From contig CBDDEL010000017.1 of NCBI GenBank assembly GCA_965226885.1, forward strand, positions 384,001-448,000: a DNA stretch of 64,000 nt, read 5' to 3'. The position numbers were made by a program, and so were the translations under genes. The notes beneath the pieces are model-generated. The model was given only the letters and a program-made list of their open reading frames with translations, had not been told where the DNA came from and made no database searches. Source of the stretch: Opitutales bacterium. GTDB lineage: Bacteria > Verrucomicrobiota > Verrucomicrobiia > Opitutales > UBA2987. This document shows positions 2,408-56,935 of this stretch, in pieces (positions within the stretch are counted from its first letter, which is position 1; every line of letters starts with the position of its first letter).

Positions 2408-2423
2408 GTAAACGTTCAGTTAC
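2408..2423. promoter_or_regulatory. Palindromic operator GTAAAcgttcaGTTAC (1 mismatch)
   Basis: In a divergent intergenic region; TTGACA at 2382-2387. Confidence 0.7.
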
Positions 2424-2543
2424 TTTTAGCGAGAGAAAAATGAAATTTTTGCCTTTTTACAAGAACTTCAAATGGATATGCAATTAAATTCTAACGCATA
2501 TGGATCGGCAAATTGTAGAAATTGAAACAGGTTCATCAAAATC

Positions 2544-3386
2544 ATGCGTATAGCAATTACAGGAGGGAGCGGCAAAATCGGCGTTTATACCGTCAGAGAA
2601 TTCCAGGAGCATGGCTACGAGGTGCGCAATCTGGATGCGGTGCGGCCCTCCCATGAAAACCTACCGACCACCATCGTAGATGTTGCCCATTTCGGGGATT
2701 TGGTTAGCTGCCTGAACGGTTTCGATGCCATCGTCCACCTGGGAGCAATTGTTGCGCCGGGCCGGACTTCCAACAATACGCTTTTCCGCACCAACACACA
2801 GGGTACATTCAATGTGCTGGAAGCCGCCTCCGTGCTTGGAATCAAAAAGGTGTGCCTGGCCTCCAGCATCAATGCCCTGGGCATGGGTTTCAATCTGGAA
2901 CAGCGATTCCGATACTTTCCGGTCGATGAACGGCACCCTTGCCAACCGGATGAGGCTTATGGCCTGAGCAAGCAAGTTGGTGAAGTCGCAGCCGACGCGT
3001 TTAGCTTACGGTTTTCCTGGATGACACTCTGCAGCATGAGATACCCGGCGGTTTTTACTCCCGAACTCTATCAAATTCTCGACCGATCAGCGCCGCACCG
3101 CCGCAAGATTCTCTGGGCCTACGCTGACGTTAGAGAAGTGGCCCGCGCCAACCGTTTGGCAATTGAGGCCGATTGGACCGGGCACGAGACGTTCTATATA
3201 ACTGCTGACCACACCTTATCGCAAACCCCTACACGGAAACTCCTGGCAGAGCATTACCCGAATGTGGAAACAAGAGGTGAAATGGCCGGGCACACCAGCC
3301 TCATCTCATCGGCCAAAGCGGAAAAACTCCTCGGCTGGAAACACCAGCGGCAGTTAGAGACTGAATTGAAACGAGTAGGGAAATAG
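2544..3386 (+). CDS. NAD-dependent epimerase/dehydratase (extended SDR, uronate dehydrogenase-like)
   Basis: TGGSGKIG Rossmann motif; YGLSK catalytic motif. Confidence 0.88.
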   Translation: MRIAITGGSGKIGVYTVREFQEHGYEVRNLDAVRPSHENLPTTIVDVAHFGDLVSCLNGFDAIVHLGAIVAPGRTSNNTLFRTNTQGTFNVLEAASVLGIKKVCLASSINALGMGFNLEQRFRYFPVDERHPCQPDEAYGLSKQVGEVAADAFSLRFSWMTLCSMRYPAVFTPELYQILDRSAPHRRKILWAYADVREVARANRLAIEADWTGHETFYITADHTLSQTPTRKLLAEHYPNVETRGEMAGHTSLISSAKAEKLLGWKHQRQLETELKRVGK

Positions 3387-3398
3387 GGGTCGAATACC

Positions 3399-4256
3399 CT
3401 ACCCTTTGACCGCTCCAATCTGAATTCCGCGAATCAAGTACCTCTGCAGAACCACAAAGACGAGGATCATCGGGATAACGGACATTGTAATTGCGGCCAT
3501 TAAAAGATGGGTCGATTGCCCGATTTCGGAATCGAAAAAGAGCAAACCGATGGGGAGCGTGTAATTGTCCACATTACGGAGCATGACCAGGGGCCAGAAA
3601 AAGCTGTGGTAGTTGCCCACGAAAGTGAAAATGGTGAGGGCAATCAACCCCGGACGACTGAGCGGTAGAATAATATCCACATATATGCGCCATTTGCTGG
3701 CCCCGTCGATCTCCGCCGCCTCGTCCAGTGAAGTTGGGATGGTGAGCATGAACTGACGCAATAAAAATGTCCCGAAGGCACTGAAGGCGGCCGGTAAAAC
3801 CAGGCCCAGAAAACTGTCCACGAGGTGCAGGTAAACCATAATCTGGTAATTCGAGATGATCATGACCAAACCGGGCAGCATGAGGGTGGAAAGGTAAAGC
3901 AGAAACACCCTGTCGCGGCCCGGCCATTTCAAACGGGCAAATGAATAAGCCGCCAGAGAACTGGTAAATACCTGCAAAAAAGTAACCCAGGAAGCGATAA
4001 AAATACTGTTCCAGTAAAATCTTCCGAATGGAATGACGCGAAATACTTCAGCATAATTTTTCCATTGAAAAACGCTCGGTATCCACTCCGAGCTTCCCAA
4101 ATCGATCAACGGTTTGAGGCTGGTCAGAACCATCCACACAAACGGTAAAATCATGAGTAAGCTGACGCCGGCCAAAAAGAAATGGAGGAAGCCGCCGGAC
4201 AGAAAATCGCTGTTGATTAGCGGGTCCTTCAGGGGTTGTTTCTGCGGGTTAATCAT
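3399..4256 (-). CDS. Carbohydrate ABC transporter permease (MalG-type)
   Basis: EAA loop SLDEAAEIDGASKW; hydrophobic helices; likely start MINPQK at 4256. Confidence 0.92.
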   Translation of the reverse strand: MINPQKQPLKDPLINSDFLSGGFLHFFLAGVSLLMILPFVWMVLTSLKPLIDLGSSEWIPSVFQWKNYAEVFRVIPFGRFYWNSIFIASWVTFLQVFTSSLAAYSFARLKWPGRDRVFLLYLSTLMLPGLVMIISNYQIMVYLHLVDSFLGLVLPAAFSAFGTFLLRQFMLTIPTSLDEAAEIDGASKWRIYVDIILPLSRPGLIALTIFTFVGNYHSFFWPLVMLRNVDNYTLPIGLLFFDSEIGQSTHLLMAAITMSVIPMILVFVVLQRYLIRGIQIGAVKG

Positions 4257-5733
4257 TGACGTAGCGATTCCCGAATTTGAAATTGAAAACGGTGATCGTG
4301 AAAACGAGCAGGAAGAGTGTCCACACAACGGCCGAAGCGTAGCCGAGGCGACCCGTTTCGAATCCCTCGATATAGACGAAATAACTCAAAGTAGTGGTGG
4401 AACCGGCCGGTCCGCCTTCGGTCATGGTGCGTGCCATTTCGAATCCGCCCTGGAGACCGGCGATCACACTCATTACGACGATGAAAAAAGTAACAGGAGC
4501 CAGTTGTGGCCAGGTAATATGCCAAAATTTCTGCAATGGGGTAGCCCCGTCGATATCTGCCGCTTCGTAGAGCTCGATCGGGATATTACTGATTCCGGCA
4601 ATATAAAGGACCATATTATTGGAACCCACAGCCGCCCAAAAAGCCATAAATATCAAGGCCGGTTTGGCCCAATAGTAATCGGAGAGCCAATCGGGCGCAT
4701 CCAGGCCGTCCGCCGCCATGGAATGCAAGTTCAAAAATACCAACGTGAGACCAATCAGGCAAAATTGCAAGGTCATCAAGCCGATTGAAAACATCAGGCT
4801 TTCCCCAAATCCCCGGTCGCTATTCATAGGAATAAGCCGCTTCCTGACAAACATGGGATATGCGCAAACGACAAGCAGAACAGCTACAAGGACGAGCAGC
4901 CATTTGCCCAGATTGAATGATTGAACCCAATAGCAGCTGCATACCGCTGGCAAGAGAGTAAAGGCCGCCGACCAAATCAATCCTTTTGTAGCCAGGTCGC
5001 CATCAAGCCATTCCCGCGCCAATCGGCGAAAATGGCGGAATACAATGAAACAAAGGCCTCCCAGGCAGATCAAACCGGCGAGAGTACCGGTAAAGGGTGG
5101 TAGCGAATTGACCACATTGGCGAGGGCGTTAAGCATCGGATGCAATGCGCTGTTGAGGGGGCCGGTTTCCGCATTGTATATTTTCTTCCACAAAAGAAAA
5201 GTGGCCACCCCGGCCGTGAAATGGGGTGTATAAAACAAGGTCCGGTAAAAAGTGGAACCGGCCAGCGTCCCGCCTATCAGCACGAGCCCGGCCAAACCTC
5301 CCAGCAGAAGCCATAACCCCGAGAGCCGAAATCCGAGCAGGAAGAGAATCAGGACTCCAGTCACTAGGACGGAACCGATGAGCAGCCGGCGGCGGGTGCT
5401 CGCCCTCTTTCCCCGCAGATTCTTGGTCAGCAGAAGTGCGGCCAGCAGGCTCCCCCCAATGGTAAAGGGTATTCCTATCATCAGGAACATCGTGTTTCCC
5501 AAAAAACGCCAGAATTCTTTGTGGGAAAAAAGGAGGGTGAAATTGGCCAGGCCCACCAGTTCCGGAATGCCGTCCTTAAACATATTGTGATGGCGGATAT
5601 CCCAATTGCTGAAGGCGATCAAAAGGCTGGCTATAAGCGGCAATATGGTAAATGCGGCAAAGCCGGAAATATTGGGTAGAAGAAAAAACAAACCCGTCTT
5701 CAGGTTTCGCAAATCTTTACGATCCAGTGCCAT
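4249..5733 (-). CDS. Carbohydrate ABC transporter permease (MalF-type) with extra membrane segments
   Basis: ELYEAADIDGA EAA motif; GRLGYASA; 494 aa. Confidence 0.9.
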   Translation of the reverse strand: MALDRKDLRNLKTGLFFLLPNISGFAAFTILPLIASLLIAFSNWDIRHHNMFKDGIPELVGLANFTLLFSHKEFWRFLGNTMFLMIGIPFTIGGSLLAALLLTKNLRGKRASTRRRLLIGSVLVTGVLILFLLGFRLSGLWLLLGGLAGLVLIGGTLAGSTFYRTLFYTPHFTAGVATFLLWKKIYNAETGPLNSALHPMLNALANVVNSLPPFTGTLAGLICLGGLCFIVFRHFRRLAREWLDGDLATKGLIWSAAFTLLPAVCSCYWVQSFNLGKWLLVLVAVLLVVCAYPMFVRKRLIPMNSDRGFGESLMFSIGLMTLQFCLIGLTLVFLNLHSMAADGLDAPDWLSDYYWAKPALIFMAFWAAVGSNNMVLYIAGISNIPIELYEAADIDGATPLQKFWHITWPQLAPVTFFIVVMSVIAGLQGGFEMARTMTEGGPAGSTTTLSYFVYIEGFETGRLGYASAVVWTLFLLVFTITVFNFKFGNRYVND

Positions 5734-5735
5734 TG

Positions 5736-7226
5736 TTATTTCGTTTGGGTAAGTTTATCTTGGGATGGTGATTCTTCCGACCATCCCCGGAACACGTAAT
5801 ATTTTTTGTAGAAAGAATTCCCGATCCATTCCAGGGGGACCGGCTTCCCTTCCCTGCGCAAGCGGTCAATCTCCCCCTGTAGTTGCTGCAGGCGGTCGAA
5901 TTCTTTCTTCAGTTTCGGATCCTCGCTGATATTCCGGGCCATCTGCCGGTTGATGCGATCGGTCACATCCTGAGCCGCTTCCTGAGGGTTCATCGAACCT
6001 GAGATGAGGCTCTGCCATGCGTCTTTGGCAAAGCGATTGACTGCGTAGGGAAGAATAAAAGGACTCACTATGGCACTAATGGCAATAGAGCGGGCAGCCT
6101 CCGCATAAGGCTCATGAATCTCCCATTCGTTGGGATAATCGGGGGGCCGCCGATAGGCCTCGATTTCCGTGTAACGTGGAACCGGCGGAAGGGAATCGGC
6201 ATCGTAAACAATTTGCATATTGTAACGCTCGCTGGTAAAAAACTTCAGCAGGTAGGCGGCCAGTTCTTTCTTATCGGAACCGGCGTAAATGGCCGTACCG
6301 GCCGAACCGAAAAGGGTGTTGCGGAAGTGGCTGTTGGGCGGTTCCCGCAGCGTCAAACGCAAATGTTTGTATTCCCGCAACTGGATGAGGGCGTAACGGC
6401 CGTTGGTGGTGAGGGCGTAGCGCCCCCGGGCAAAAAGTTGGATTCTGGAGGTTACGGTATCGGAACCGGCAAAAAAATCGAGGTCCGCCTGGCTCGGTAG
6501 AATGCGATCCTCGAACATCCATTTGTAAATCAAGCGGTAGGTTTCGACACTTCGTGGATCGTCCAGAATGCATCGGGTGAGGGTTTCGTTAAACAACGCC
6601 AGCCCCATGCTCCGGCGCATCACCTGGCGGTTGACCATATCGGCGAAAAAAATGGTTTGCCTTTCCCCCGGCGGATTGGCCCGGCGCACGAATTCCTTTC
6701 CCATTTTTTCAAACGTGGCATGATCCCATATTTTCAGGGGCGGCGCCATGCCGTGCTCCTCCAGAAGACCCACGTTGACAAAGTACATCTGGACAGACGT
6801 CCCCCTGGGGAAACTATACTGCGCCCCGTTTATAATGACCGAGGGGTATTTCGCTTTCCAGGTCTTATCGGGCCCGAACCCGTGTTGGGCAGCCAGCTCG
6901 GTGAGGTCTTCGAGCATCCCGGTAGACTCAAGCAGCCAGGGCTCGTCCCGGACCATGTCGATAATGTCTGCGCCCACGCCCGAGACGCCCTGGATCAGTT
7001 TTTTAGAAATATCCCGGTTGGAGCTGTCGATGCGCAATTCCATTGGCGGATAACCGTTTTCCTCGATCCATTGGTGGAACTGCTTCACTTGCTGCTGACG
7101 GGCCTCATTGGTGCTGGTCACCCAGTAGAGGATCGGCTTGCCGCTTCGCACCTCCGGCCGGGATAGGTGATTGAGGGCGGTGGCGCCAAGCAGTATGAGA
7201 AGAATGATGGCGAAAAGGTATTTCAT
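5736..7226 (-). CDS. Sugar ABC transporter substrate-binding protein
   Basis: N-terminal signal/anchor; SBP family 1-like segments (DIIDM..LEDLT, YSFP...MYFVN); lies upstream of the permeases. Confidence 0.85.
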   Translation of the reverse strand: MKYLFAIILLILLGATALNHLSRPEVRSGKPILYWVTSTNEARQQQVKQFHQWIEENGYPPMELRIDSSNRDISKKLIQGVSGVGADIIDMVRDEPWLLESTGMLEDLTELAAQHGFGPDKTWKAKYPSVIINGAQYSFPRGTSVQMYFVNVGLLEEHGMAPPLKIWDHATFEKMGKEFVRRANPPGERQTIFFADMVNRQVMRRSMGLALFNETLTRCILDDPRSVETYRLIYKWMFEDRILPSQADLDFFAGSDTVTSRIQLFARGRYALTTNGRYALIQLREYKHLRLTLREPPNSHFRNTLFGSAGTAIYAGSDKKELAAYLLKFFTSERYNMQIVYDADSLPPVPRYTEIEAYRRPPDYPNEWEIHEPYAEAARSIAISAIVSPFILPYAVNRFAKDAWQSLISGSMNPQEAAQDVTDRINRQMARNISEDPKLKKEFDRLQQLQGEIDRLRREGKPVPLEWIGNSFYKKYYVFRGWSEESPSQDKLTQTK

Positions 7227-7295
7227 CCAAAACCGTTATTATTAAATTGGCCTCTTCTTCAAAGAATACGGAATAAAAAGCCTTTTTCAATCATC

Positions 7296-8159
7296 TTAAA
7301 TTGAAGGATAAATTCTGGATCGAAATTCGGGCCGGCCTTTGACTTCACAGGGCAAATGAAATATGTCGCCGTCCAGCCCTTCGTCCGATGGATCACCCGC
7401 CGTGGTGATGAAAAGGCGGTTAAACTCATCACCCCCAAAGACGATTGAGGATACTTTTTCAACCGGCAGATGGATTTTTTCAATAACCACGCCGTCCGGA
7501 GTGTGTTTGCAAACTGCATAACCGCCCCACCTGGCTGACCAGAGATTGCCATCGGCGTCAACGGTCAACCCATCGGGGGTCCCCTCCCCTTCTTCGGCCG
7601 TAATAATCGTTTTGCGGTTGGAGATTTCCCCGCTGGCCCGATCGTAGGAAAAGCGGAAAACTTTTTTTCGCGTTGAACAAGTCCAATAAAAGGTTCCCAA
7701 GTCGGGCGAAAACCCCATCCCGTTAGCCACCCGGGTTTCGCATAAAATCTTCGTCATGCGCCCATCGGTATCCAGTCGGTAAAGCCCGCCCGAGGATTCG
7801 TCACAGCCGATGGTTCCGGCAAATACCCTTCCTTCGGGATCGGCGATGACGTCGTTGAACCGCCTCATTCCCTCGTCTTCAACAGTGATAATGGAATCAA
7901 CATCGCCGTTCTCTTGCAGCACGGCTATGTCGTCCTCCCGAAAAAGCAAAAGGATTCCGTCTTCCTGTATTGTAAAACCCCCGACTGCCGGACCGCCCTG
8001 GTAAATTACACGAGTCTCTTTGGTAGCTGTTTCATACCGGTAAATAACCTTTCCCAGTATATCCACCCAGAAGAGACTTTTTCTCCGCTCGTCCCATAAT
8101 GGGTTTTCACCCAATCGGCATTGTTGGTGAACTAGGACTTGCGGCTCCGGGTGTGACAT
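7296..8159 (-). CDS. SMP-30/gluconolactonase family lactonase
   Basis: LGENPLWD, RFNDVIADPEGR, NGMGFSPD and PDGLTVDADGNLW motifs. Confidence 0.93.
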   Translation of the reverse strand: MSHPEPQVLVHQQCRLGENPLWDERRKSLFWVDILGKVIYRYETATKETRVIYQGGPAVGGFTIQEDGILLLFREDDIAVLQENGDVDSIITVEDEGMRRFNDVIADPEGRVFAGTIGCDESSGGLYRLDTDGRMTKILCETRVANGMGFSPDLGTFYWTCSTRKKVFRFSYDRASGEISNRKTIITAEEGEGTPDGLTVDADGNLWSARWGGYAVCKHTPDGVVIEKIHLPVEKVSSIVFGGDEFNRLFITTAGDPSDEGLDGDIFHLPCEVKGRPEFRSRIYPSI

Positions 8160-8197: not shown

Positions 8198-8213
8198 GTA
8201 ACTATTTGGTTAC
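8198..8213. promoter_or_regulatory. Palindromic operator GTAACtatttgGTTAC
   Basis: In a divergent intergenic region; TTGACA at 8182-8187. Confidence 0.85.
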
Positions 8214-8280
8214 TTTTGTCGTATAAGATGATAAAAACGATTTCAAGGAAAATCTTCGATTGCGGACAAAAAGGCAAGGT

Positions 8281-9231
8281 ATGAGAAAACGGCGTTTAGG
8301 AAAAACCGATTGGCAAATCAGTGAAATTGGTTTCGGCGCCTGGCCGATTGGCGGCATCATGTATGGCGATGTGCCGACAGAGGACGCTGGCGCCGCCATC
8401 CGCGCCTATGTCGAAGCGGGCGGAAACTTCATTGATACCGCCCGTGTTTACCGCACGAGCGAAGAAATAATCGGCCGCACGATTTACCAATGCGCCCGCC
8501 GTGAAGACCTCATTATAGCCAGTAAAACCAAAGCATTGGACGCTGCGGGCATCGAAACGGACCTGGCCGAAACCCTTCGCCATCTGCAAACAGACTATGT
8601 CGATCTTTATTACATTCACGAGCCGCCCGAAGATGCCGATGCCGCCCACGAGGTTCTCGAGGTCTTTCAATCGCTCAAAAAAAGGGGGTTCATCAGGGCT
8701 GTCGGCGCATCCATCAAGGGACCCAATGTAACCAGCGCCACGGTGGACCTTTGCCGCCAATACATGGCCACCGGCTGCGTCGATGCTCTGCAGGTGATTT
8801 ACAGCATCTTTAGGCAAAAAATCCGGGAAATTATGAACGAAGCCCTCAAAAACGATGTTGGCATAGTGGCCCGGGGCATCCTCGAAAGCGGTTTCCTGAC
8901 CGGCAAATATAAACCCGGCCATCTTTTCGTGGAGGGAGACCACCGCAATCGCTGGGGCCGCCGCGGGCTCGATCATTGCCTTCAATGTGTGAATGAGCTG
9001 AAAGAGTTCGCCGCCTCCCGGCAGATCGAAAACCTCAATCATCTTTCCATCCAGTTCGCCCTGCGGCCAAAAGCTGTCTCCACTGTGATCCTGGGTGGAA
9101 AAACCGAACAACAGGTGATGGAAAATCTCGATACGCTCCAGTCGCCGCCTTTGGATGCGGACCTGCTAGAACAGCTGGCAGAGTTGTATGGCGGCAGGAC
9201 TTCCGAATTCAATATTCCCGAATCCGCTTGA
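8281..9231 (+). CDS. Aldo/keto reductase
   Basis: RRLGKT..SEIGFGAW, NFIDTARVY and LQTDYVDLYYIH motifs. Confidence 0.93.
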   Translation: MRKRRLGKTDWQISEIGFGAWPIGGIMYGDVPTEDAGAAIRAYVEAGGNFIDTARVYRTSEEIIGRTIYQCARREDLIIASKTKALDAAGIETDLAETLRHLQTDYVDLYYIHEPPEDADAAHEVLEVFQSLKKRGFIRAVGASIKGPNVTSATVDLCRQYMATGCVDALQVIYSIFRQKIREIMNEALKNDVGIVARGILESGFLTGKYKPGHLFVEGDHRNRWGRRGLDHCLQCVNELKEFAASRQIENLNHLSIQFALRPKAVSTVILGGKTEQQVMENLDTLQSPPLDADLLEQLAELYGGRTSEFNIPESA

Positions 9232-9241: not shown

Positions 9242-9622
9242 TCAGAGCCGGGCAACTGCGTCGATCTCTACTTTGATGCCTTTCATAAGCTGCGCCCCTA
9301 TCGTCGTTCTGGCCGGCCGGACATCCCTGAAGAATTCCCCGTAGGCCTGGTTAAAGCCCTCAAAATATTCCATGTCGGAGAGATAACAGGTGCATTTCAC
9401 GACATTGTCCCGGGTAGCGCCCGCTTCTTTTAAAATGGCTTCGATGTGGTCGAGTGTTCGCCTGGTTTCCTCCTGGATGGTTCCCTCTACCAATTTTCCG
9501 GTTTTCATATCGAGGGGGCCTTGGCCGCTGACATACAGCCACCCATCGCAAACAATTCCGGCCGAAAATAAACCATAAGTGAATTTTTTATCCGGGTGTT
9601 GAATCTCTTTTTTTGACATCAT
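9242..9622 (-). CDS. RidA/YjgF family enamine/imine deaminase
   Basis: LYVSGQGP, RPARTT (catalytic Arg) and VEIDAVA motifs. Confidence 0.92.
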   Translation of the reverse strand: MMSKKEIQHPDKKFTYGLFSAGIVCDGWLYVSGQGPLDMKTGKLVEGTIQEETRRTLDHIEAILKEAGATRDNVVKCTCYLSDMEYFEGFNQAYGEFFRDVRPARTTIGAQLMKGIKVEIDAVARL

Positions 9623-9671
9623 CTTTAGCAAACGAAATTGGTTTTCTAAAACTCCTTACAGGTTGACACAA

Positions 9672-9687
9672 GTAACTATTCAGTTAC
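9672..9687. promoter_or_regulatory. Palindromic operator GTAACtattcaGTTAC
   Basis: In a divergent intergenic region; TTGACA at 9663-9668. Confidence 0.85.
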
Positions 9688-9727: not shown

Positions 9728-11236
9728 ATGAAACGAATTGCCGTCGGTCAGATCCAGCAGGAAACCAACACCCTTAACCCCATCCTGGCGAAGCGGGAGA
9801 ATTTTGAAGCTTATGGGCTGGCGCGGGGAGACGAGATCATGGCCCACCATGGCGATGTCAGTGAATTGGGCGGATTCGCCGCTCTTCCCCAAACCCTTGG
9901 GCAGGATGTCGAATGGCTCGGCTTGATCAGAGCCAAGGGCCACGCCGGAGGCCCCCTCTCAGATGCCTTGCTGGAGGAATTCATCGAGGCGGCCTGCGAA
10001 CCTCTCCGCCGGGTTCCGGTGGATGGCGTGCTTTTGGCGCTGCACGGGGCGTTGGCTTCGACCGGATGCCCGGATGCCGAGGGCTCTATCCTGAAACGAG
10101 TGCGGGAAACGGTCGGCCCGGAAGTCCCCGTAGTGGCCACCCTTGATCTCCATGCCAATATCACCCGCCAGATGGTGGATGCGGCCGACGTGCTGGTCGG
10201 TTATCACACTTTTCCGCATATTGACGCCATGCAAACGGGGAGGCGCGCCGCGCGCGTTTTGGCCGACCTGCTGTTAAAAGGACCCGGCATTCGGGTTTCG
10301 GCGACAAAAATTCCCATGGTCGTCAACACACGGGGTTTTACCACCGACAAGGGCGTCATGGCGGATATTTACCGCCGCCTGGTCGAGGCGGAATGTGAGG
10401 ATGGGGTAATCTCCACGGGGCTTTACATGGCGCAGCCCTGGCTCGATGTGCCGGATCTCGGCTGGACACTCTACCAGGCATTCAGGTCCGAAAAACCACC
10501 TTTGCAGGTGGAGCCATTGGTGCGCGAATGCTGGCAGGCGCGAAAGCATAATCAAGCCGTCCTTTCCACTCCCACAGAGGTCGTGCAGGAAGCTCTCTCC
10601 ACCAAGGGCGGCCCGGTCGTCATCTCGGAAGGCCACGACGCCACCAACTCCGGCGCACCGGGCGACAGCACCCGTCTCCTGGCGGCGCTCATCAGCCGCC
10701 CCATCCCGGAAGGCGGAGCCTTGACCTTCTGCGTCGATAAGGAAGCGGTCGAGCGGTGCCACCAAGCGGGTTCGGGGCGCCCCGTCAAATTAATGGTTGG
10801 CGGGCGGCGAGATCCTTTTTCCGAACCGGTGGAACTGGAGGGGACCGTGTCTAGCCTCGGCGCAGTGAGGTTCCTGCTCTCCGGTCATGGCGGGCACAAT
10901 CTTCCCGTTGACTTGGGGCGGGCGGGCGTCGTAAAGAACGCTTTCGCGACTATTGTGTTGACCGAGAGGGAAGGCAATGGCAGCAGCCCGAAACTGTATC
11001 AATCCGTGGGCATCGACCCGAAAAAGTATAAAATTGTGGTTGCCAAAAGCCCTGAGGGATTCCGCCATGACTATGAACCAATGGCGGCGGCCATTCTCTA
11101 CTGCGGAGCGCCCGGATGCGCTTCGGCCAACCTCAAGGAATTGCCTTTCCATCTGGCTTCGCGGCCGCTCTTTCCACTGGATGACTTCGATGACCTCGAT
11201 AAAGCCGCCTGGACCTGGACCGTGACCAAGCAATAA
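9728..11236 (+). CDS. M81 family (MlrC-like) metallopeptidase/amidase
   Basis: QETNT, LALHGA, TLDLHANIT, YHTFPHID and DATNSGAPGD motifs. Confidence 0.9.
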   Translation: MKRIAVGQIQQETNTLNPILAKRENFEAYGLARGDEIMAHHGDVSELGGFAALPQTLGQDVEWLGLIRAKGHAGGPLSDALLEEFIEAACEPLRRVPVDGVLLALHGALASTGCPDAEGSILKRVRETVGPEVPVVATLDLHANITRQMVDAADVLVGYHTFPHIDAMQTGRRAARVLADLLLKGPGIRVSATKIPMVVNTRGFTTDKGVMADIYRRLVEAECEDGVISTGLYMAQPWLDVPDLGWTLYQAFRSEKPPLQVEPLVRECWQARKHNQAVLSTPTEVVQEALSTKGGPVVISEGHDATNSGAPGDSTRLLAALISRPIPEGGALTFCVDKEAVERCHQAGSGRPVKLMVGGRRDPFSEPVELEGTVSSLGAVRFLLSGHGGHNLPVDLGRAGVVKNAFATIVLTEREGNGSSPKLYQSVGIDPKKYKIVVAKSPEGFRHDYEPMAAAILYCGAPGCASANLKELPFHLASRPLFPLDDFDDLDKAAWTWTVTKQ

Positions 11237-11244
11237 AACGACAA

Positions 11245-12558
11245 ATGGACGCCATAAACTCCTCGCAGCTATTCCAACGGGCTCGCCGCTCTTTGCCAGG
11301 TGGAGTCTGTTCCTCCACCCGTTACAACGCAGCCCTGGAAAAGCCTATGTATGTGACCGAGGCGCACGGCGCACGGTTTACCGATGTTGAGGGACGCACT
11401 TACATAGATATGTGCTGTGGTCACGGGGCTGCCCTTCTCGGGCATGGGCATCCGGCCGTTTGCGCCGCTCTCCAGGAAGCCGCCCGATTGGGGGTTTGCT
11501 GCGCCTTCGACACGCCGCACGTGATTCAACTGGCGGAAACGATTTGCCGGTTCATTCCTTGCGCGGAGAGAGTCCGTTTTACCAATTCGGGATCCGAGGC
11601 TACCCTCCACGCCATAAGGCTCTGCCGGGCCGTCAGCGGGCGGGACAAAATCATCCGTTTCACGGGCCATTTCCACGGCTATCACGAACACACCTACATC
11701 GGCGGCCATCCCCCGCTGGAGGCTCTCGACCGCGCCTCCTCCTACCGCGAATCGGCCGGCATTCCCAAGCCGTTGACACAATTCATCGTGGCCCTGCCCT
11801 TTAACGATCTTTCGGCCGTAGAGAACGCACTGAAATCTCAGTCCCATGAAATCGGGACCGTCATTCTGGAACCGATCGACTACAACAGCGGGGCCATCTT
11901 GGCACAACCCGGTTATCTGGCAGGCCTGCGGGAATTGACGAAGAAATATGACGTCCTTCTCTTTTTCGACGAAATCCAATCCTGTTTTAAAAAGAGTACC
12001 GGCGGCGCGCAGACGGACTTCGGAGTGATTCCCGATATTTGCACCATAGGTAAATCGCTGGGCGGGGGATTGCCCCTGTCGGCGATCTGTGGTCCGGCCG
12101 AAATCATGGATCGATTTAAGCCTCTGGGCGACGTTCAGCACAGCGGGACTTTCAACGGCCCCCTGCCCAGCGTTCTGGCCGGAAACGCCTTTTGCGCGGA
12201 AGTGGAAAAACCCACATTTTACGCAAAACTGGAAGAACTCGGAGAACGTTTTTACGGGGAACTGGAGGATATCATCGACCGCCTGGGCCTGCCCGTTCAG
12301 GCGCCCCATCACGGGGCCCGCTTCGGACTTTTGATGGGCCTGGAAGAAAAACCCATCGACTACCGCGACACCCTCAAGCACCGCTCCGACCTGATGCTTG
12401 ATTTTGTCCGCGAAACAGCCCGGCAGGGGGTTTACTTTCACGACTATAACGGCAATCCCTGCCATCACGGTTTCAGCTGGGCTCATTCCATGGAAGACAT
12501 GGAAAAGGTACTCGAGGCGGTTGAAAATGCCTTAATGCGAATCAAAGATCGATTCTGA
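11245..12558 (+). CDS. Class III aminotransferase (GSA-aminomutase-like)
   Basis: FTNSGSEAT, GHFHGYH, FDEIQS and GKSLGGGLP (PLP Lys) motifs. Confidence 0.9.
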   Translation: MDAINSSQLFQRARRSLPGGVCSSTRYNAALEKPMYVTEAHGARFTDVEGRTYIDMCCGHGAALLGHGHPAVCAALQEAARLGVCCAFDTPHVIQLAETICRFIPCAERVRFTNSGSEATLHAIRLCRAVSGRDKIIRFTGHFHGYHEHTYIGGHPPLEALDRASSYRESAGIPKPLTQFIVALPFNDLSAVENALKSQSHEIGTVILEPIDYNSGAILAQPGYLAGLRELTKKYDVLLFFDEIQSCFKKSTGGAQTDFGVIPDICTIGKSLGGGLPLSAICGPAEIMDRFKPLGDVQHSGTFNGPLPSVLAGNAFCAEVEKPTFYAKLEELGERFYGELEDIIDRLGLPVQAPHHGARFGLLMGLEEKPIDYRDTLKHRSDLMLDFVRETARQGVYFHDYNGNPCHHGFSWAHSMEDMEKVLEAVENALMRIKDRF

Positions 12559-45686: not shown

Positions 45687-45690
45687 GTGC

Positions 45691-49213: not shown

Positions 49214-49216
49214 ATT

Positions 49217-50728
49217 TCAATCCTGTTGCCTGCAATCAAAATGATCAAGAGGCCAGACCGGTCTGCGAATATTTTTGTAGGGCAGGGATTTGAGGTTGCT
49301 GGCGCACGGTCCCGGCGTATCCACTTCTATATTGAGCCGGGCGATTTTGTCGTAAGCCTGCCGATGGGCCACAGCCGCCTTGACATGGATCACGCCAAGC
49401 CGTTCGGGATCGATCCCTTGGCTGCGCCACTGACCGAGGTCGAAGGGGGGCGTTTTTCTGCTCGTCAGGAGAATAGTCGAATTTTTATGCTGGACAACCG
49501 CGCATGGTCCCATATCAACGGTTTTACCGGCGATGGCAGCGAGATGGCTGTGCGGGTCTTCGAGTTGAAAACGGCCATCGGAGGTTGAGACCAGCTGGAC
49601 TTTTAAAGTTAACGATTCGGCCCCGATAACCCCGCTATTTCCGCCTATGGCCAGTTCCACCGTTGCTCCCAAAGGCGACTTCAGCACCTCTTGCACGGCC
49701 TTAGGATCGTTTATTATGGAGCCAATGGAGGGAAAGGAAAATTTGAGCATTTCCTTTAGAACCAGAGTAAGATCGCCGGGAGCGCCCCCGCCTATATTGT
49801 CGGCGGACTCGACTATGACGGCTGGAAAACGGTTCTTTTTTTCAATCAGCGCTAACAGCGCTAGCGCATCATTGAGCGGAAGGCCGGGTTTGGGGCCTTT
49901 GTCTTTCCGTTCCCAGGCCAGGCTTTCCAGATCGTCGAGAACTCCTGCGCAGTCCGTTGAACTGCCGGTCGAGACAAGGGAAAAAGAGACCCCGCAATCC
50001 GCCATATCGGAATAAGCATAGCCCGCGAATACATTCACTACCTCGATTCCTTCTGTTTTCGCCTCCGCCTGGCGGGCCCGCTTCTCGAGGGATTTCATCG
50101 GTTCTTCAGCCGTTGCGGTGGCGCTGGCATTGAGCACGATGGAAGTCTGCCGCCAGATCGTTTTGGGACGGCGCCCGGAAGTAAGACAGCTATGGAGAAG
50201 GTGGGCGGCTCGTATGGCGGTGGCGCGGGCGTCCGTGTGGGGATTTTTCCGATAGGTGACCAGGCAATCGGAGAAACGGGCCATTTTCTCCGTGAAATTG
50301 CAATGCAGATCGAGAATGCCGAAGAGGGGGACCTTTTCCAAACCAGGCAGCCCTCTTATACGGGAAAGCAGCTCGCCCTCGACGTCGGGAAATGAACGCG
50401 AGACCATGGCCCCGTGAAGAAAAAGAAACACCGCATGGATGGTGGTGTTCCGGCCATTGGGCAGGGAATTGAGAAAATCGGCCCAGAAACTCTCCACCAC
50501 TTCGTCCTCGACCATCCCGCCGGGCGTAGCCTGATACAGAACCCCGGGAAAGACCTGCCAGTCGTTGGCCTCGGCCACTTCGAGAAAGCCGTCAACGGGA
50601 GAGGGGGAACCGCGAAAATCGAAAATGGATTCGCCCCGGTATTGCTCAAAGACTTTCAGGGGGGTTGACGAGTTTAGGAAGGTGTGCGTTTCATGCCGCA
50701 ACCCGGCGAAAAAAATGTTCCGTTTCAT
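49217..50728 (-). CDS. M81 family (MlrC-like) metallopeptidase/amidase, second paralog
   Basis: HETHTF, LFLHGAM, LDLHCN, YRKNPHTD and DNIGGGAPGD motifs. Confidence 0.9.
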   Translation of the reverse strand: MKRNIFFAGLRHETHTFLNSSTPLKVFEQYRGESIFDFRGSPSPVDGFLEVAEANDWQVFPGVLYQATPGGMVEDEVVESFWADFLNSLPNGRNTTIHAVFLFLHGAMVSRSFPDVEGELLSRIRGLPGLEKVPLFGILDLHCNFTEKMARFSDCLVTYRKNPHTDARATAIRAAHLLHSCLTSGRRPKTIWRQTSIVLNASATATAEEPMKSLEKRARQAEAKTEGIEVVNVFAGYAYSDMADCGVSFSLVSTGSSTDCAGVLDDLESLAWERKDKGPKPGLPLNDALALLALIEKKNRFPAVIVESADNIGGGAPGDLTLVLKEMLKFSFPSIGSIINDPKAVQEVLKSPLGATVELAIGGNSGVIGAESLTLKVQLVSTSDGRFQLEDPHSHLAAIAGKTVDMGPCAVVQHKNSTILLTSRKTPPFDLGQWRSQGIDPERLGVIHVKAAVAHRQAYDKIARLNIEVDTPGPCASNLKSLPYKNIRRPVWPLDHFDCRQQD

Positions 50729-50733
50729 CGCCG

Positions 50734-51603
50734 TTACTTGGAAGATGGCGATCCCCGGAAGTTCGGATTTTGGGCATCGATGGCCAGGCGTTTTTGCTGC
50801 GACAGGGCACTCGCCATGGGATGGGTGACGCCGCCTTCCACGCTCAACGTTTGCCCGGTTATGCCCCCGCCAGCCTCGCTTAGAAACAAACACATCGGGG
50901 CCAGCAGGTCGGTTGGGACGATTCGCCTGCGCACCGATTGCCAGTTGATCAAACGCTGGTCTTTCTCCTCATCGCGCCCCTCCTTTTCCACCACAATGGC
51001 TCCTGGTGAGATGCAATTGACGGTTATGCCGCTGGGTCCCAATTCATGGGCGAGGGAGCGGGTCAAGCCTACCAAAGCGCCTTTTGAAGCCACATAGGCG
51101 CTCATATAAACCCCGCCCAGGTCAAAGGTTACAGACCCAATCAGTAAAATGCGGGGGGCCTTACTTTTCTTTAAATGCGGAAGCAATTCGCGCGTAATAT
51201 CGATGGCCGGCTCCACATTGGTGGCCATGACCTGGCGAAAGAAATCCATGTCGAGCTCCTCGAAACGGCGGCGCGGGTCGATGGCGGCATTGTGCACGAT
51301 GCCATCGATGACCTCGTGCCTGGCGGCGATTTCATGGCTGGCCCGGATGCGCGCTTCCCGGTCGGCAAGGTCGCATACGGCATATTCGATGCCACCCCCG
51401 CAGCCCTCATATTCCTCCTGGATTCTTTTCAGAGCGGCCTCTTTGCGGGCGACTAAAATGAGGTGGATTCCCTGGGCCAGAAGTCCCGGAATCAAGCCCA
51501 ACCCAATGCCGCGATTGGCACCCGTAAGGATGATCTTTTTCCCGTCAAGGTCATCAAAATGGAAACCGGGTGAGTAGGTTAGTTTGCCAGTTGGTTTGTT
51601 CAT
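50734..51603 (-). CDS. Short-chain dehydrogenase/reductase
   Basis: TGANRGIG, HNAA, YVASK and VNCISPG motifs. Confidence 0.92.
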   Translation of the reverse strand: MNKPTGKLTYSPGFHFDDLDGKKIILTGANRGIGLGLIPGLLAQGIHLILVARKEAALKRIQEEYEGCGGGIEYAVCDLADREARIRASHEIAARHEVIDGIVHNAAIDPRRRFEELDMDFFRQVMATNVEPAIDITRELLPHLKKSKAPRILLIGSVTFDLGGVYMSAYVASKGALVGLTRSLAHELGPSGITVNCISPGAIVVEKEGRDEEKDQRLINWQSVRRRIVPTDLLAPMCLFLSEAGGGITGQTLSVEGGVTHPMASALSQQKRLAIDAQNPNFRGSPSSK

Positions 51604-51694: not shown

Positions 51695-51710
51695 GTAACT
51701 AAAGGGTTAC
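51695..51710. promoter_or_regulatory. Palindromic operator GTAACtaaaggGTTAC
   Basis: Intergenic, ~90 bp upstream of the SDR-MlrC-TPR unit. Confidence 0.85.
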
Positions 51711-51793: not shown

Positions 51794-53298
51794 TCAATTA
51801 TGCTGGAGAGGGGTGTTGCTTTCACCACCTTGGGGCGGGGTGGGCCATTGGAGGCCGCGTTGACCGCATAATCCCCGGTTGGGCTGCGGCTCATAAGGTT
51901 TGTCCGGCAGTCCCATTAATTTTCCATCCCGAACCCATTCTTTATCCGCTCCGTAGAATTCATTTATGAGCAGGGTGGTCAGCTTTTTAAGAATTTGGCT
52001 GTTTTCGGGGGATTGAGCCAGGTCAGTGGATTCATCGGGGTCCTTCTCCAGATCGAAAAGCTGCAAGTGGTTGCCGACGGGGTAATAAATAAGTTTATAA
52101 CGCCCATCGTGGATCATGCGCGTGGCTGTGTCGTCCTCGCCGTATTCTCCGTAGAAAAAATCCCTTTTTCGCTCTCCCGCCATGGAGAGGCCCTCGACCG
52201 AATCGGGGATCGGTATACCGGCCAGGTCCAGCAGGGTGGGCATGACATCCCGCAGCCCAACCAGGCGGCCGTCAACCCGGTGATGCCCGATGCGCTCATC
52301 TCCTGCCGTACCCACGAGAATCATCGGTATGTGGGCGGATTCTTCATAAAACAGCCGCATGGCAAATCGCCGGTGTTTGCCCAACATTTCTCCGTGATCG
52401 GAGGTGAACAGGATAATGGTGTTGTCCAGCAGTCGTTCCTCGCGCAGGGTCCCGATGACTACCCGTATTTGGTGGTCGATGTGGGTGCAGAGTGCATAAA
52501 ATGCCCGCCGGGCCATGCGCACTTCTTGTTCGGAATATTGTTCCCACTCCAGCTCCCGCTGTCTCAGCGCATAGGGCAATGCGTCCCCATCTTCCGCCCA
52601 TGAGCCCACCTTGGGCAAGCCGGGATCGATATCCCGATAGAGGTCCAGGTAGCATTGGGGCGGTGTCAAGGGTAGATGGGGATGGGTGTAGCCGAGGTAC
52701 CAAAAACCCGGTTTCCGTGGGTCCCGACGCTGGATCATGCGGGCCATCTGCCGGGTCGTCCAGGTTGTGGGATGGCAATGTTCGGGCAGATGCCAGGGGC
52801 GGCATTGGTAGTCGTTGTTGCTCAAACCATGTGCGAATTGCTGCCCTGCGTAGCCGTTTTCTCCCAGAAAAATTTCGTAATCGTCGGTCGTGCCAAATTG
52901 CAGCCGGCCTTCTTCGTTGAGAATAGCGTCGTCGAATCCGATGCGGTCCCGCTGGGGGTAAACGTGCAGTTTGCCAGCCGCAAAGGCCTGATAACCGGCC
53001 TCTTTAAATACCTGCGCCAAAGTGGGAAAGGCGGGCATCTCTAGGGATTCGTTGAAGCCGCGGTCACCGTGGGTGCGTGTGGTCGTTCCGGTCATGAGGC
53101 TCCGACGGGCTGGTATGCAGACCGGTTATTCGGAGTAAGCCCGTAAATAACGAGTCCCATTGCGTGCCAATTGATTTAGGGTCGGTGTCAGTATGCTCGG
53201 ATGCCCCGCGACGCCCAATCGGGAAGCGGCCCAGCGGTCTGTCGTAATAAGCAGAGCATTAGAACATTCGGTTTTTGTTTATGTTTTTGTCTTTTCAT
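51794..53298 (-). pseudogene. Sulfatase pseudogene (8-bp duplication frameshift plus in-frame TAA)
   Basis: MKRQKHKQKPNVL, then duplicated AATG(T/C)TCT (53253-53268), then LLITTDRW...AYSE*PVCIPARRSLMTG with the stop at 53126-53128. Confidence 0.85.
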
Positions 53299-53640
53299 GG
53301 TTGTAGAGGAAAACTAGGCGCTGAATTCCCGACTGAGAGATTTGTGCATTCCAAGGGTGAAAATAGAAAAAAGGTTCTCCCTTACGAGGCGGGCGAAGGC
53401 GCCATCCAGGAGGCTATTGAGGTCGGCCTTCCAAATATCGGAACGGCTGAGGACGACCCCGGTCAACCGGCCCAGGCTCTCTTTTGATCTAAGGTCCGTT
53501 TTCTCGTAGGCACGATAAAAAAAGTCCGCATGGAGGTGGTCGTTGACCGGGTAGCGGCCGCTGTCATTTCGAGGTTGGTCTTTGCGACCGCAAGCATGTC
53601 CGTCCGCATCCATTTCCACGACTTTCATGAATACTATATA

Positions 53641-55471
53641 GAGGCTGTCCCAAAAATATAAAGATTTTATAGTCAACTGGATGACGTTGATAAAAAGAGC
53701 CGGAAAGAGCAAGTTTTTGCTCGATTCGGCCAAAAAAGGGTTCTATAATTGAGTTAGCGAAAATCAATATAGCCCTTTCTATGAAAAATATAGCCATCCA
53801 ATGCCTCCTGCGTCCAGCTTTAACTGTGGTCGACCGGTGCCTCGATTACGATAACTTCCGCGCCACCATTGATCGAATCGATCGGCTGCTGATCGACTCG
53901 GAGGTGGAATCGCAGGCCATTGAGCTGGCCTTGGAGGGGTGGCCGCCAATGGGTCTAAAGGCCCGGCGGCAGCGGGCCAGTTTTGCCATCAAGGCACTGC
54001 GCATGGATACGCTGGGCCGTCTGCTCGGAGGGATTTCGTTTCGGCATTTGTCGCGGGCTCTGGGCAGCAGCGATCTGTTGGCCGACTTTTGCCGTGTCCG
54101 GCAGATCGATGGCATCAGGGGCATCTCCAAAAGCACCCTGGAGCGGGCCTCGAAGTTTTTCAGCGAAGAGCAGTTGAGGGCCTTGCACCGGACCTTGACT
54201 GAGGTGGTGGGCGATGCCCTTCTGGCCCGGCAGGTGGGATTGGACAAGCCGATTGACACCACCATTTGCCTGATCGACGGCACCTGTTTGGAGGCTAACA
54301 TTCATTGGCCGACGGACTGGGTATTACTCAAGGATGTAGCCGGCACGTTGCTCAAAGCGATCCGGCTGATCCGCGAGAAGGCCGGTTTGCGCCATCGCAT
54401 GCCGATCGAACCGGAGCCCTTGGCTCGGCAGATGAATCGGCTGTGCATACAGATGACCCACAGCCGGCGGCGAAAGGACAGCGCGCGGCAGCGCAAGGGT
54501 ATCTTGAGGCAGATGAAAAAGCTGCTCAAACGGATCGGGGAGCATGCCCGCAGTCACCGGGAATCAGTCACCGGGAATTATTGCAAGCCTGCTGGGAGCA
54601 AAGCGATTACAGCGAAAAACAGGTCCAACAGATCCTCGCCCGGATGGAGCGCATGAGCGAGCAAATCCCGGTGGTCATCAAACAGGCGCACGAGCGGATC
54701 ATTGGCGGCCGCCAGGTGAAAAACGCAGAGAAAGTCTTGAGTGTTTACGAACTCGATGGGCAGGTGATTGTGCGAGGTAAAGCGGGCCAAGAGGTCGAGT
54801 TCGGCAACACCCTGTTTTTGGGAGAAAGCGTTGAAGGGTACCTGCTGGACTGGAAACTCTACGGCAGCCGAACTCCAAGCGAAAATGAACAAATGCAAGA
54901 GAGTTTGCAAAGACAGAACCGCTTCAACCTGGAAGAACCCATAGCGGCCATGTGCGCGGACCGGGGATTTGCCTCCCAGCGGGCCCGCCGGCAGTTAGCC
55001 CAGGAGGGAATCTACGACGCGCTCTGTCCACGCGATCCGAAGCAGTTGAAAAAACGGATGGAGGAACCACTGTTCAGACAATTGCAAAAGCGCCGGGCCA
55101 GCACCGAAGGGCGGATCGGGGTATTGAAGAATCGCTGGCAGGCCGGGCGGTTGCGCAGCAAAGGCTTTGCCAACCGCTCGATCAGCGTAGCCTGGTCGGT
55201 ACTCTCGCACAACCTATGGAAAGTAGCCAAGATGCTGGCCCAGCAAGACGAACTAAAAACCAAAGCGGCGGCCTAGAGAGCGGAAAAGCAAGGACAATAC
55301 TTTTTCACAGCCGTACTGTCGGCTCATACAAAGAAAACCAGGCAACCGGACCCCAAAACCAGTATCCTAACGTCATAGGAGAGCAAAGTTGATACTCTCC
55401 CAAATGCAAATACCTCTAAAATGAGCGCCTATCAAAAGCCCTCGCAAAAATCACCCTTTTGGGACAGCCTC
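53641..55471 (+). mobile_element. ISNCY (ISDol1-like) element, second copy; 6-bp TATATA duplication
   Basis: 15-bp IR GAGGCTGTCCCAAAA; TATATA at 53635-53640 and 55472-55477. Confidence 0.92.
53781..55276 (+). pseudogene. Transposase frameshifted by a 14-bp tandem duplication
   Basis: CAGTCACCGGGAAT twice at 54551-54578; single in the other copy. Confidence 0.88.
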
Positions 55472-56735
55472 TATATATGCGGCCAGGGCAAAGGCCAGGC
55501 CCTTTGGAGGGATGGGGTTCTGGCGGCAAAAGTCAATGATTGAGGGAATGATCCTCTCGGCCATTTTGGAGGTGTAGTTGAGCGAGAGGGTAAGCAGCTT
55601 GTGCTCAATAAAAGGATTGCGGAATCTCTCCAGGACGGCGTCGGTATAATCGGCCGCTTGCCGGTAGGGTATATCCATGCTTGGACAGGCTTCTTCATAG
55701 AGCATTCTGCGCAGATAGGAGAGGATGAGGGGGTCTTTCATGCTCTCGCCCACCGTGTCATTGCCGACCAGAAAAGAGGGGGCGATCATGGCGCTGTGGG
55801 CCCCGCAGAGGAGACGCATTTTCATTTGGTGCTCGTATTCCAGATCGTCAACGTATCGCATCTGAAAACCTGGAATGTCCTCGGCCGGAAATTTTGCCCG
55901 GACGGTGCGCGCCGGATCCTCTATGACCCATAATTTAAACGGTTCACCGATGGAAAGGGCGTTGTCTGTATAACCCAGTTCCCGGTGAAGCTTGGCGCAT
56001 TCCACGGCGTTGGGTTTTCCCGATATGATCGAATCCACTATAGAGTTGGCAATGATGACATGCCGTTGAAGCCAGTTCTGAAAATCCTCTTCCAGTTTAA
56101 AACGGCGGATCAGTTCCTGGATGCAGTCGCGCAGGAGATCGCCGCTGCGGTAGTTTAATTCCGTCGGTACGATGATGAGACCGGATTCCGCGGTTGAGCC
56201 CAGGCAGCGGTACCTATTATATAGAAAGAGGGTCAGTTTGGCGGGAAAGGAATGTGGCGGGGTGGCATCGGGAGCATCGGCCGGGTCGATTCGGATGCCG
56301 GCTTCGGTCGTTTGCGAAAAAACCAGTTCGAGGGTCGGGGAGGACGCCGCGGTGAGAATATCTTGCCAGTAGGTTGTGGATTTAAATGGAATGATTCTAC
56401 TCATCGAGGAGACGATGTATTTTTCCTCGATCCTGCCGCCGTTTCGCAACCCTCTCAAAATACTTGTGTAAAGACAATCCTGCCGGGCCAGGCCAAGGGA
56501 CAAGTCCTCCTGGGTGAGAAGGCCGGGGTCGACCGGCTGGACGGCGATGCCCCGGCCCGCGAAACGTCCGTTGAGGTTCATCCGGTCGATGATCCAGTAT
56601 AAGAAAGAGCGCAGGAAATTCCCCTCCCCGAAAGTGAGGAATTTCTCCTCGTGCGAGAATGCCTCGGGTGATGGAAGGATGATTCCCCTGGATTCCATCG
56701 CTTTTTGGAAATCATCCCGCTCCATCCGAGTTCTA

Positions 56736-56773
56736 GTCAGTTCGGGGAGATAGTGTCAGTTCGGGGAGATAGT
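56736..56773. repeat. Perfect 19-bp tandem duplication GTCAGTTCGGGGAGATAGT
   Basis: Direct reading; lies just upstream of the uxaB-like start. Confidence 0.9.
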
Positions 56774-56892
56774 GTTTCAATGTAATTTCATCAGAAAACT
56801 CTGCCTTGTGGAGATATCAGTCCTAAGCCAAATGGGTTTATTTCACGATTTCAAAAAAAATTTTACCTTTTTTTTTAAAATCCTTGACAGGG

Positions 56893-56935
56893 GTAACCAG
56901 TTGGTTACTTTGGCTGAAGATAACTATCCAGTTAC
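56893..56935. promoter_or_regulatory. Tandem operators GTAACcagttgGTTAC (56893-56908) and ATAACtatccaGTTAC (56920-56935)
   Basis: Between TTGACA (56884-56889) and reverse TTGACA (56944-56949) in the uxaB/TBDR divergent region. Confidence 0.87.

Follow-up and report, generated by a model that had tools for sequence, protein, structure and literature searches.

A TetR-type repressor and the palindrome GTAACY-N4-RGTTAC as the probable basis of one sugar-acid catabolic regulon in an Opitutales bacterium

A 64,000-nucleotide stretch of contig CBDDEL010000017.1 (here C17; positions 384,001 to 448,000, assembly GCA_965226885.1) from an Opitutales bacterium of the Verrucomicrobiota, referred to below as the window, carries an apparently mixed set of genes in which one palindrome, GTAAC-N6-GTTAC, recurs at gene 5' ends. 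The question raised by this locus is whether these genes form one system under a single TetR-type repressor, encoded by a tetR gene of the window, and what such a system would do. A first-pass annotation of the sequence had proposed a single-TetR regulon, and the analysis described here supports that reading: the motif follows the TetR and not the genes that it would regulate, and the predicted regulon is well supported. The repressor-operator pair appears to be new, and the mechanism is an ordinary one.

All nine perfect sites previously claimed were found, at 8198, 9672, 17821, 27465, 32335, 36350, 45671, 51695 and 56893, together with the two one-mismatch sites at 2408 and 56920, and each of the nine also matches the longer form GTAACY-N4-RGTTAC. 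In 100 dinucleotide shuffles of the window the mean number was 0.00 for perfect sites and 0.38 when one mismatch was allowed. Every divergent junction of the window that does not involve an insertion sequence (IS) has a site (9/9), eight of them a perfect one and the ninth the mismatched site at 2408; the site at 51695 lies at a tandem and not a divergent junction, between two minus-strand genes and ahead of the gene of a short-chain dehydrogenase/reductase (SDR) at 51603. The whole 5.48-Mb genome contains 12 perfect GTAACY-N4-RGTTAC sites, eleven of them on C17 (392,198 to 455,529) and one on another contig, C14. Nine of the eleven are those of the window and two lie beyond its end, at C17:449508 and C17:455529, both at divergent junctions, while the twelfth is located ahead of a second copy of tetR.

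The eleven sites on C17 fall in an island that runs from window position 829 to about 73,865 (C17 ~457,865), that is, 73 kb with 50 non-IS genes, 42 of them in the window. All 11 divergent junctions of the island have a site, one of them (2408) mismatched, which together with the tandem-junction site at 51695 gives 23 units; the earlier estimate of about 19 transcription units and 40 genes is accurate for the window. A script placed 49 of the 50 genes in strand runs led by a site, a coverage that is implied once the junctions are marked and adds no evidence of its own. The fiftieth gene encodes a broken sulfatase and stands behind the C-terminal piece of an IS-split tagaturonate reductase gene; therefore, it belonged to the 56893 unit. 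The island encodes four sulfatases, two M81 peptidases, three aminotransferases, a fold III pyridoxal phosphate (PLP) enzyme with a Rid protein, a lactonase, two acid-sugar dehydratases and the tagaturonate reductase. The features of the window are the following:

829 to 64000, unstranded: window part of the island, which continues with two more operator-marked divergent junctions.
2408 to 2423, unstranded: weak operator with one mismatch, between the divergent genes of a sulfatase (829-2184, minus) and an NAD-dependent epimerase-family protein (2544-3386, plus).
8198 to 8213, unstranded: operator between lactonase, solute-binding protein and two ATP-binding cassette (ABC) permease genes (3399-8159, minus) and an aldo-keto reductase gene (8260-9231, plus).
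9672 to 9687, unstranded: operator between a Rid-family gene (9242-9631, minus) and genes for an M81 peptidase, a class III aminotransferase and a protein of no assigned family (9728-13354, plus).
17821 to 17836, unstranded: operator between genes for an HPS-like protein, a xylose-isomerase-like barrel and a metallophosphoesterase (15043-17750, minus) and an amidohydrolase gene (17871-18845, plus).
27465 to 27480, unstranded: operator between genes for a 2-hydroxyacid dehydrogenase, ComA, a DUF3604-like protein and the fold III PLP enzyme (22237-27450, minus) and a sulfatase gene (27488-28999, plus).
32335 to 32350, unstranded: operator between genes for a metallophosphoesterase and an enolase-superfamily dehydratase (29036-32274, minus) and a phytoene-desaturase-like FAD oxidoreductase gene (32351-33955, plus).
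36320 to 36391, minus strand: copy of the tetR promoter with operator 36350-36365, on the side of a sulfatase gene, divergent from genes for a Gfo/Idh/MocA enzyme, two barrel proteins, a protein of no assigned family and an esterase (36576-42500, plus).
43441 to 44490, minus strand: core gene for a class I aldolase-like protein of the dihydrodipicolinate synthase/N-acetylneuraminate lyase (DHDPS/NAL) fold.
44606 to 45634, minus strand: core gene for an extended SDR.
45671 to 45686, unstranded: operator between the SDR, aldolase and GNAT unit (42526-45634, minus) and tetR, ending 4 nucleotides before the tetR ATG.
45691 to 46335, plus strand: tetR, 214 residues, domains TetR_N and TetR_C_29.
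51695 to 51710, unstranded: operator at the tandem junction, ahead of genes for an SDR, an M81 peptidase and a tetratricopeptide-repeat (TPR) protein (46448-51603, minus).
56893 to 56935, unstranded: double operator, perfect at 56893-56908 and with one mismatch at 56920-56935, between the IS-split tagaturonate reductase and broken sulfatase genes (51794-56725, minus) and genes for a TonB receptor, a beta-propeller protein and a metallo-hydrolase (57122-63791, plus).

These counts have to be read with some care. A count of nine for some palindrome is not rare, as 11 other of the 75 genome windows reach at least nine, with other patterns, several of them of low complexity. The site at 2408 is weak: its mismatched position is 99% conserved in foreign sites, and its matrix score is no better than that of six background matches elsewhere. 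Because the sites that trained the weight matrix had been selected by the same pattern, it ranks sites and is no independent test; nine of its weak matches outside the island were inspected, some coding and some intergenic, and none was tied to the regulon. The three sites in 22300-39100 are unchanged where contigs of three other runs cover them, wholly or partly, an agreement that carries no weight at a divergence of about 0.2%. Palindromes of the same half-sites with other spacers of 0 to 14 occur 0 to 4 times each in the genome, except for GTAAC-N10-GTTAC, which has 144 copies (141 identical) and is unrelated, as it sits in a repeated IS3-family element. It can scarcely be credited that the sites themselves are scars of recombination or insertion, or chance. 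Such an origin might be suspected in a genome in which about 32% is high-copy repeat and in which the similar N10 palindrome was found 141 times inside an IS; however, the flanks and the 4-nucleotide centre differ among the sites, save for the 36350/45671 pair, and the site has been conserved in front of orthologues that share 44-55% protein identity. High-copy repeat makes up 11% of the island, which in this respect ranks among the lowest 5% of 464 overlapping windows.

Whether the site follows the TetR was addressed with 80 foreign loci around TetR orthologues, 50 TetR-positive genomes, 60 order-level relatives and 200 genomes drawn from the phylum. The TetR relatives, with 45-58% identity, belong to Opitutaceae, Puniceicoccaceae, Chthoniobacterales, Terrimicrobiaceae and Methylacidiphilales. 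A contig of 87.5 kb encodes TetR and aldolase relatives (P0125, P0006) of 83-84% identity. The extended SDR gene adjoins the TetR orthologue in 48 of the 80 foreign loci, with the operator upstream in 46 of those 48, and an unbiased palindrome count upstream of these 48 genes ranked GTAAC-N6-GTTAC first (33 perfect, 46 with at most one mismatch); for spacers of 4, 5, 7 and 8 the count was 0/48. The 50 TetR-positive genomes hold 166 perfect sites, distributed over 42 of them, versus 14 for a reversed control. Among the order-level relatives, the 57 without TetR have 7 sites versus 28 for the control, and in each of the three with TetR a perfect or near-perfect site adjoins tetR. In the 200 phylum genomes the SDR is present in 34 and the TetR in five, all within the 34. 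A site was found beside the SDR in 5/5 TetR-positive loci and in none of the 24 TetR-negative loci compared (out of 29); for a perfect site at any position in the genome the figures are 4/5 TetR-positive versus 0/29 TetR-negative SDR carriers. A genome of the same genus (G001) has the SDR and the aldolase, and has neither the TetR nor a site.

From these comparisons it is very probable that the TetR binds the site and represses there. The alternative, that another regulator owns the site and the TetR merely travels along, draws on the fact that TetR binding is predicted from sequence and that it is often the SDR gene, not tetR, that the site precedes. It is nevertheless highly improbable, given that SDR carriers without the TetR lack the motif, that family annotation revealed no other regulator family among the 50 island genes (the next regulator, of the GntR family, stands beyond the last site-led gene, and the island ends before it), and that the tetR duplicate accounts for the sole site elsewhere in the genome. 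With 11 of the 12 genomic sites in the island and the twelfth at that duplicate, the motif is not spread over the genome in the company of another regulator.

The protein encoded at 45691 matches TetR_N with 57.4 bits and TetR_C_29 with 93.6 bits (cut-off 26.2), both above cut-off. It had been described as the only regulator here, which is correct for the genes of the island; the assembly, though, has two near-identical tetR copies. A unit of 1757 bp, from the tetR stop to the SDR stop and including the operator, is present twice in the genome with 96% nucleotide identity, both copies intact, and these two tetR copies are the only TetR_C_29 genes in it, another point against a different regulator. 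The operator is located directly at the tetR's own divergent promoter, also in the C14 copy. The recognition helix is invariant in 149 orthologue matches, a result that is partly circular because the peptide served as search pattern; three orthologues found without the helix pattern retain NKRM(V/L)YHY. With respect to the surroundings of the second copy, C14 ~231-307 kb and C17 ~780-837 kb form a twin block of 86-92% identity that includes tyrS and aconitase, and the second tetR-SDR unit is at the end of the C14 block, between tyrS and aspS. This copy may come from transfer from a sister lineage or species, or from a co-assembled strain; the argument for the regulon is independent of it. The GC content at third codon positions (GC3) of tetR and SDR (44580-46336) is 0.73-0.76, like that of tyrS and aconitase on C14, and most island genes are near 0.6. 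The tetR-SDR unit may have entered the island separately.

The placement of the sites relative to promoters was also considered. As had been noted, TTGACA elements lie close to the sites: an exact, correctly oriented copy is found within 30 nucleotides of 8 of the 11 window sites (6 of the 9 perfect ones), versus 1.4% of 20,000 random genome positions, a control that is not promoter-matched. The site at 36350 is inside a 72-bp stretch that copies, at 87.5% identity, the tetR promoter, operator and first nine codons; the copied tetR start is joined in frame to the sulfatase gene, 17 codons before the apparent start of the sulfatase itself. The flanks of 36350 and 45671 share 48 of 60 nucleotides, and those of the other 77 site pairs share 14-30; promoter copying as a general origin of the sites was ruled out, since shared flanks occur only in this pair, and the other sites must be old or have arisen separately. 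Many SDR orthologues (loci L005-L084) have their ATG only 3-5 nucleotides after the operator, as tetR does here, which suggests leaderless or very short-leader transcripts.

A different question is whether so mixed a gene set is one system. Most Opitutaceae have 2-10 sites, scattered over several loci; one carrier, L037, is recorded as a Horticoccus isolate and has nine. In one genome, G106, a second island of about 33 kb was found, with its own TetR (42% identical) and seven sites at gene starts. It contains orthologues of nine genes of the present island (42-72% identity) in a different order and operator-marked, and thus the mixed gene set recurs as a unit. Seven of these orthologues, encoding a phosphoesterase, a dehydratase, a 2-hydroxyacid dehydrogenase, a Rid protein, a binding protein and two permeases, form one same-strand run in G106, and the same seven genes here are in four separate units, each with its own site. 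Judged by this comparison, gene order has been reshuffled and the operator retained at the 5' ends. Co-induction of most of the island is likely. In nearer relatives the picture is one of absence: the TetR was not found in eight genomes of the same family, and four genomes of the same genus have only scattered pieces of a 16.8-kb stretch of the island, so that, among the genomes searched, the island is lineage-specific.

It is possible, if rather doubtful, that the TetR binds the site and that the island is nonetheless a collection of unrelated catabolic cassettes under one repressor, which would answer to a general cue, for example host contact or an anionic intermediate common to the cassettes. 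The genes are indeed very mixed (ComA, HPS-like, PhyH, WelO5-like, GH51, TPR), their GC3 ranges from 0.47 to 0.76, one promoter was acquired by copying, most genes have no orthologues in foreign operator-marked loci, and targets elsewhere include Gfo/Idh/MocA enzymes, 3-keto-glycoside hydrolases, DUF7133-cytochrome c proteins and several glycoside hydrolases. Against this reading stand the single run in G106, in which seven genes of four units are found under the same operator, and the constancy of the SDR-aldolase core.

Several observations weigh against one coherent, TetR-controlled system. Only about 14 of the 50 island genes have an orthologue of at least 40% identity in an operator-marked foreign locus, and many have no match at all in the compared loci. 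Locus L220 carries orthologues of three island genes, those for the M81 peptidase, the aminotransferase and the amidohydrolase, close to a TetR orthologue; it contains no site, and an IclR gene stands among them. The motif is directly upstream of tetR in 19 of the 80 foreign loci, and in the other 61 there is no site (at most one mismatch) just upstream of it, so autoregulation is not universal. A perfect site is absent from 8 of the 50 TetR-positive genomes, and the genomes compared are related, so their counts are not independent. Runs led by a site do not exclude internal promoters, and a scan of 27000-46500 for -35/-10 elements of the E. coli type gave no full promoter overlapping the four sites of that region. 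Three island genes are broken: a barrel protein gene (38545-40563) is split by an IS630 element, the tagaturonate reductase gene (53314-56725) by an ISNCY-type element, and the sulfatase gene (51794-53304) has a frameshift and a stop near its start. Finally, the window lacks the NagA, NagB and N-acetylglucosamine (GlcNAc) 2-epimerase genes on which the argument about the substrate, given below, leans.

The constant elements of these loci are two enzymes. The aldolase-like gene adjoins the TetR orthologue in 46 of the 80 foreign loci, and the protein has at least 8000 relatives at an E value of 1e-50 or better. Its structural model is a DHDPS/NAL TIM barrel (mean predicted local confidence, pLDDT, 91.5) with a best match at Z 31.4, root-mean-square deviation 2.3 and 289 aligned residues; Lys176 (Schiff base) and Tyr148 (relay) are invariant in 28 sequences. 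By the modelled fold and these two residues the core gene qualifies as a predicted class I aldolase of the DHDPS/NAL type. The extended SDR has a Rossmann fold with the motif GAGGKMG, an invariant Tyr173, a cysteine (Cys177) at the place where lysine is expected (YxxxC for YxxxK) and an invariant Arg180. Both core proteins have at most 20% identity to any solved structure, and the folds yield families only; the top 28 structural matches of the aldolase cover many activities at 10-20% identity.

The partners that recur near the TetR give some indication of the substrate. These are NagA-like proteins (26 loci), DegT aminotransferases (24), GlcNAc 2-epimerases (20), UxuA-like proteins (9), sodium symporters (8) and serine dehydratases (6). 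The first genes behind foreign sites encode TonB receptors, Gfo/Idh/MocA enzymes, amidases, an M20 deacylase, 3-keto-glycoside hydrolases and sulfatases, to which G106 adds three heparinase II/III-like genes and sulfatases. No match to a sugar kinase family was obtained among the island genes or the annotated foreign proteins. A NagB-like gene near the TetR has ACAPSQ in the phosphate loop versus LATGGTP in B. subtilis NagB, and by alignment the NagA-like protein retains an Asn and an Arg, which we take to be those of the anion site; loss of phosphate binding is thus suggested for the NagB-like protein alone and not for the NagA-like one. From the gene families and the logic of the pathway, we would put about even confidence in a substrate class of N-acylated amino-sugar acids, derived from a sulfated acidic glycan, handled without phosphorylation and cleaved by aldol cleavage to pyruvate. 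That the substrate is instead a nonulosonic acid of the sialic, pseudaminic or legionaminic type, with the aldolase as an analogue of N-acetylneuraminate lyase followed by epimerase, deacetylase and deaminase, is improbable. Such a route would account for the DHDPS/NAL fold with its Schiff-base lysine and for the GlcNAc 2-epimerase, NagA-like, NagB-like, sodium symporter and PseC/LegC-like aminotransferase genes recurrent in foreign loci; but structures of N-acetylneuraminate lyase are no closer matches than those of other family members (Z 26-31, 10-20% identity), the annotated site-led genes include no kinase or sialidase family match, and the UxuA-like protein and tagaturonate reductase indicate six-carbon acids.

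Returning to the amino-sugar acids, a likely explanation for the whole, and the best that these sequences offer, is a ligand-released TetR repressor over a sugar-acid catabolic island. A TetR dimer would bind GTAACY-N4-RGTTAC; since the site is beside TTGACA and shortly ahead of start codons, binding would block RNA polymerase on both sides of a junction, the repressor's own promoter included. A pathway intermediate would bind the C-terminal domain, the repressor would be released, and all 23 units (~50 genes) would open together. The substrate would be taken up by the TonB receptor and the ABC importer, its substituents stripped by sulfatases, phosphoesterases, the esterase and deacylases, and its nitrogen removed by aminotransferases and the PLP lyase with Rid. 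Dehydrogenases, the lactonase and dehydratases would lead to a 2-keto-3-deoxy acid, and the conserved SDR and class I aldolase would complete the route to pyruvate. A more specific version, offered tentatively and with considerable doubt, is an undescribed kinase-free route for amino-uronic acids, for instance N-acetyl-hexosaminuronates that lyases release from sulfated glycans of bacteria or animals. In this route the SDR and the aldolase would split a 5-acylamino-2-keto-3-deoxy acid into pyruvate and a C3 fragment of the serine type. Such a fragment would explain the serine dehydratase genes beside the core in six loci. The island would then be a case of regulon building, its operons reshuffled into divergent cassettes furnished with operators, once by copying of the repressor promoter.

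Some other genes deserve a mention. A lone gene of the ComA (phosphosulfolactate synthase) family (25599-26387) belongs to a catabolic unit, and its neighbourhood has no further coenzyme M genes. The proteins encoded at 40638-41531 and 12578-13354 have no Pfam or NCBIfam match; the former is similar to unnamed Atlas clusters of Latescibacterota and Planctomycetota (score 0.97, with recognition under the usual threshold). Directly behind the last operator, a 2-oxoglutarate enzyme resembling WelO5, of the carrier-independent halogenase family, is encoded (L001:11569-12477, which is C17:455.6-456.5 kb). The next block, C17:458.7-475 kb (L001:14756 onward, and L002), is a separate GntR-led unit without the TetR operator; its genes encode an IS-split TonB receptor, an Fe-alcohol dehydrogenase, DHDPS, four-carbon-acid sugar kinase domains and PdxA. 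The solute-binding protein gene (5763-7314) has a 94-95% identical copy on C16:426880-435490, in two pieces about 7 kb apart and with no operator.

The system can be compared with others already described. The first-pass annotation called the TetR NicS/RutR-like. The TetR_C_29 domain, which we take to be linked to Pseudomonas NicS, is present, so the C-terminal Pfam domain is the one of NicS-type TetRs; here the targets include no nicotinate pathway genes, and the literature searches turned up no NicS operator. As for RutR, orthology was ruled out, with 55.1 bits for TIGR03613 versus a cut-off of 368 and no rut operon, only a Rid-family gene; the match of this TetR in the PDB is confined to its first 120 residues. 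Polysaccharide utilisation loci and sialic-acid or hexuronate clusters combine a TonB receptor and sulfatases with a deacetylase-deaminase-epimerase-aldolase logic. The island resembles them in its TonB receptor, its sulfatases, the lyase-like genes of G106 and the UxaB and UxuA-like ends of the pathway, and differs in TetR control, in a core of SDR and aldolase, with no SusC/D pair identified and no kinase.

RutR of E. coli is described with a 16-bp palindrome bound by one dimer, 20 sites over the chromosome and targets in pyrimidine and purine metabolism (PMC2952853); it is likewise of the TetR family, and its half-site TTGACC shares with GTAACY T2, A4, C5 and a pyrimidine at position 6. Mycobacterial KstR is a TetR repressor with a 14-bp palindrome, TnnAACnnGTTnnA, at its own promoter; 16 and 31 sites were reported, many between divergent genes, with 74-83 genes controlled (PMC1995591). 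The likeness is in the repressor type, the short palindrome, the divergent sites and the many targets clustered near the regulator gene, whereas KstR recognises the TnnAACnnGTTnnA operator, governs lipid and cholesterol catabolism in actinomycetes and was shown experimentally (PMC1995591), and the present sites are nearly all in one island. A KstR orthologue was ruled out, as half-site and spacing differ and the targets are of the sugar-acid type. A NikR motif that contains GTAAC was rejected too, because it has another half-site and a spacer of 13-14 nucleotides (PMC545781). In literature that excludes curated regulon databases, supplements and most subscription journals, no paper was found on this repressor, operator or enzyme cluster.

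To a specialist, the control mechanism itself will be unsurprising, since its kind is known from KstR and RutR. The finding provides a predicted repressor-operator pair for the Verrucomicrobiota, a phylum of glycan degraders in which little regulation has been mapped, and an operator that serves as a tag by which, in dozens of genomes, anonymous genes can be assigned to one system. It also opens a direct way to learn what a common orphan pair of enzymes does, and identification of the TetR ligand would name the substrate. Its value for the biology of these bacteria is that it tags an unstudied and widespread catabolic route, and shows a probable regulon that is kept through the shuffling of its genes.

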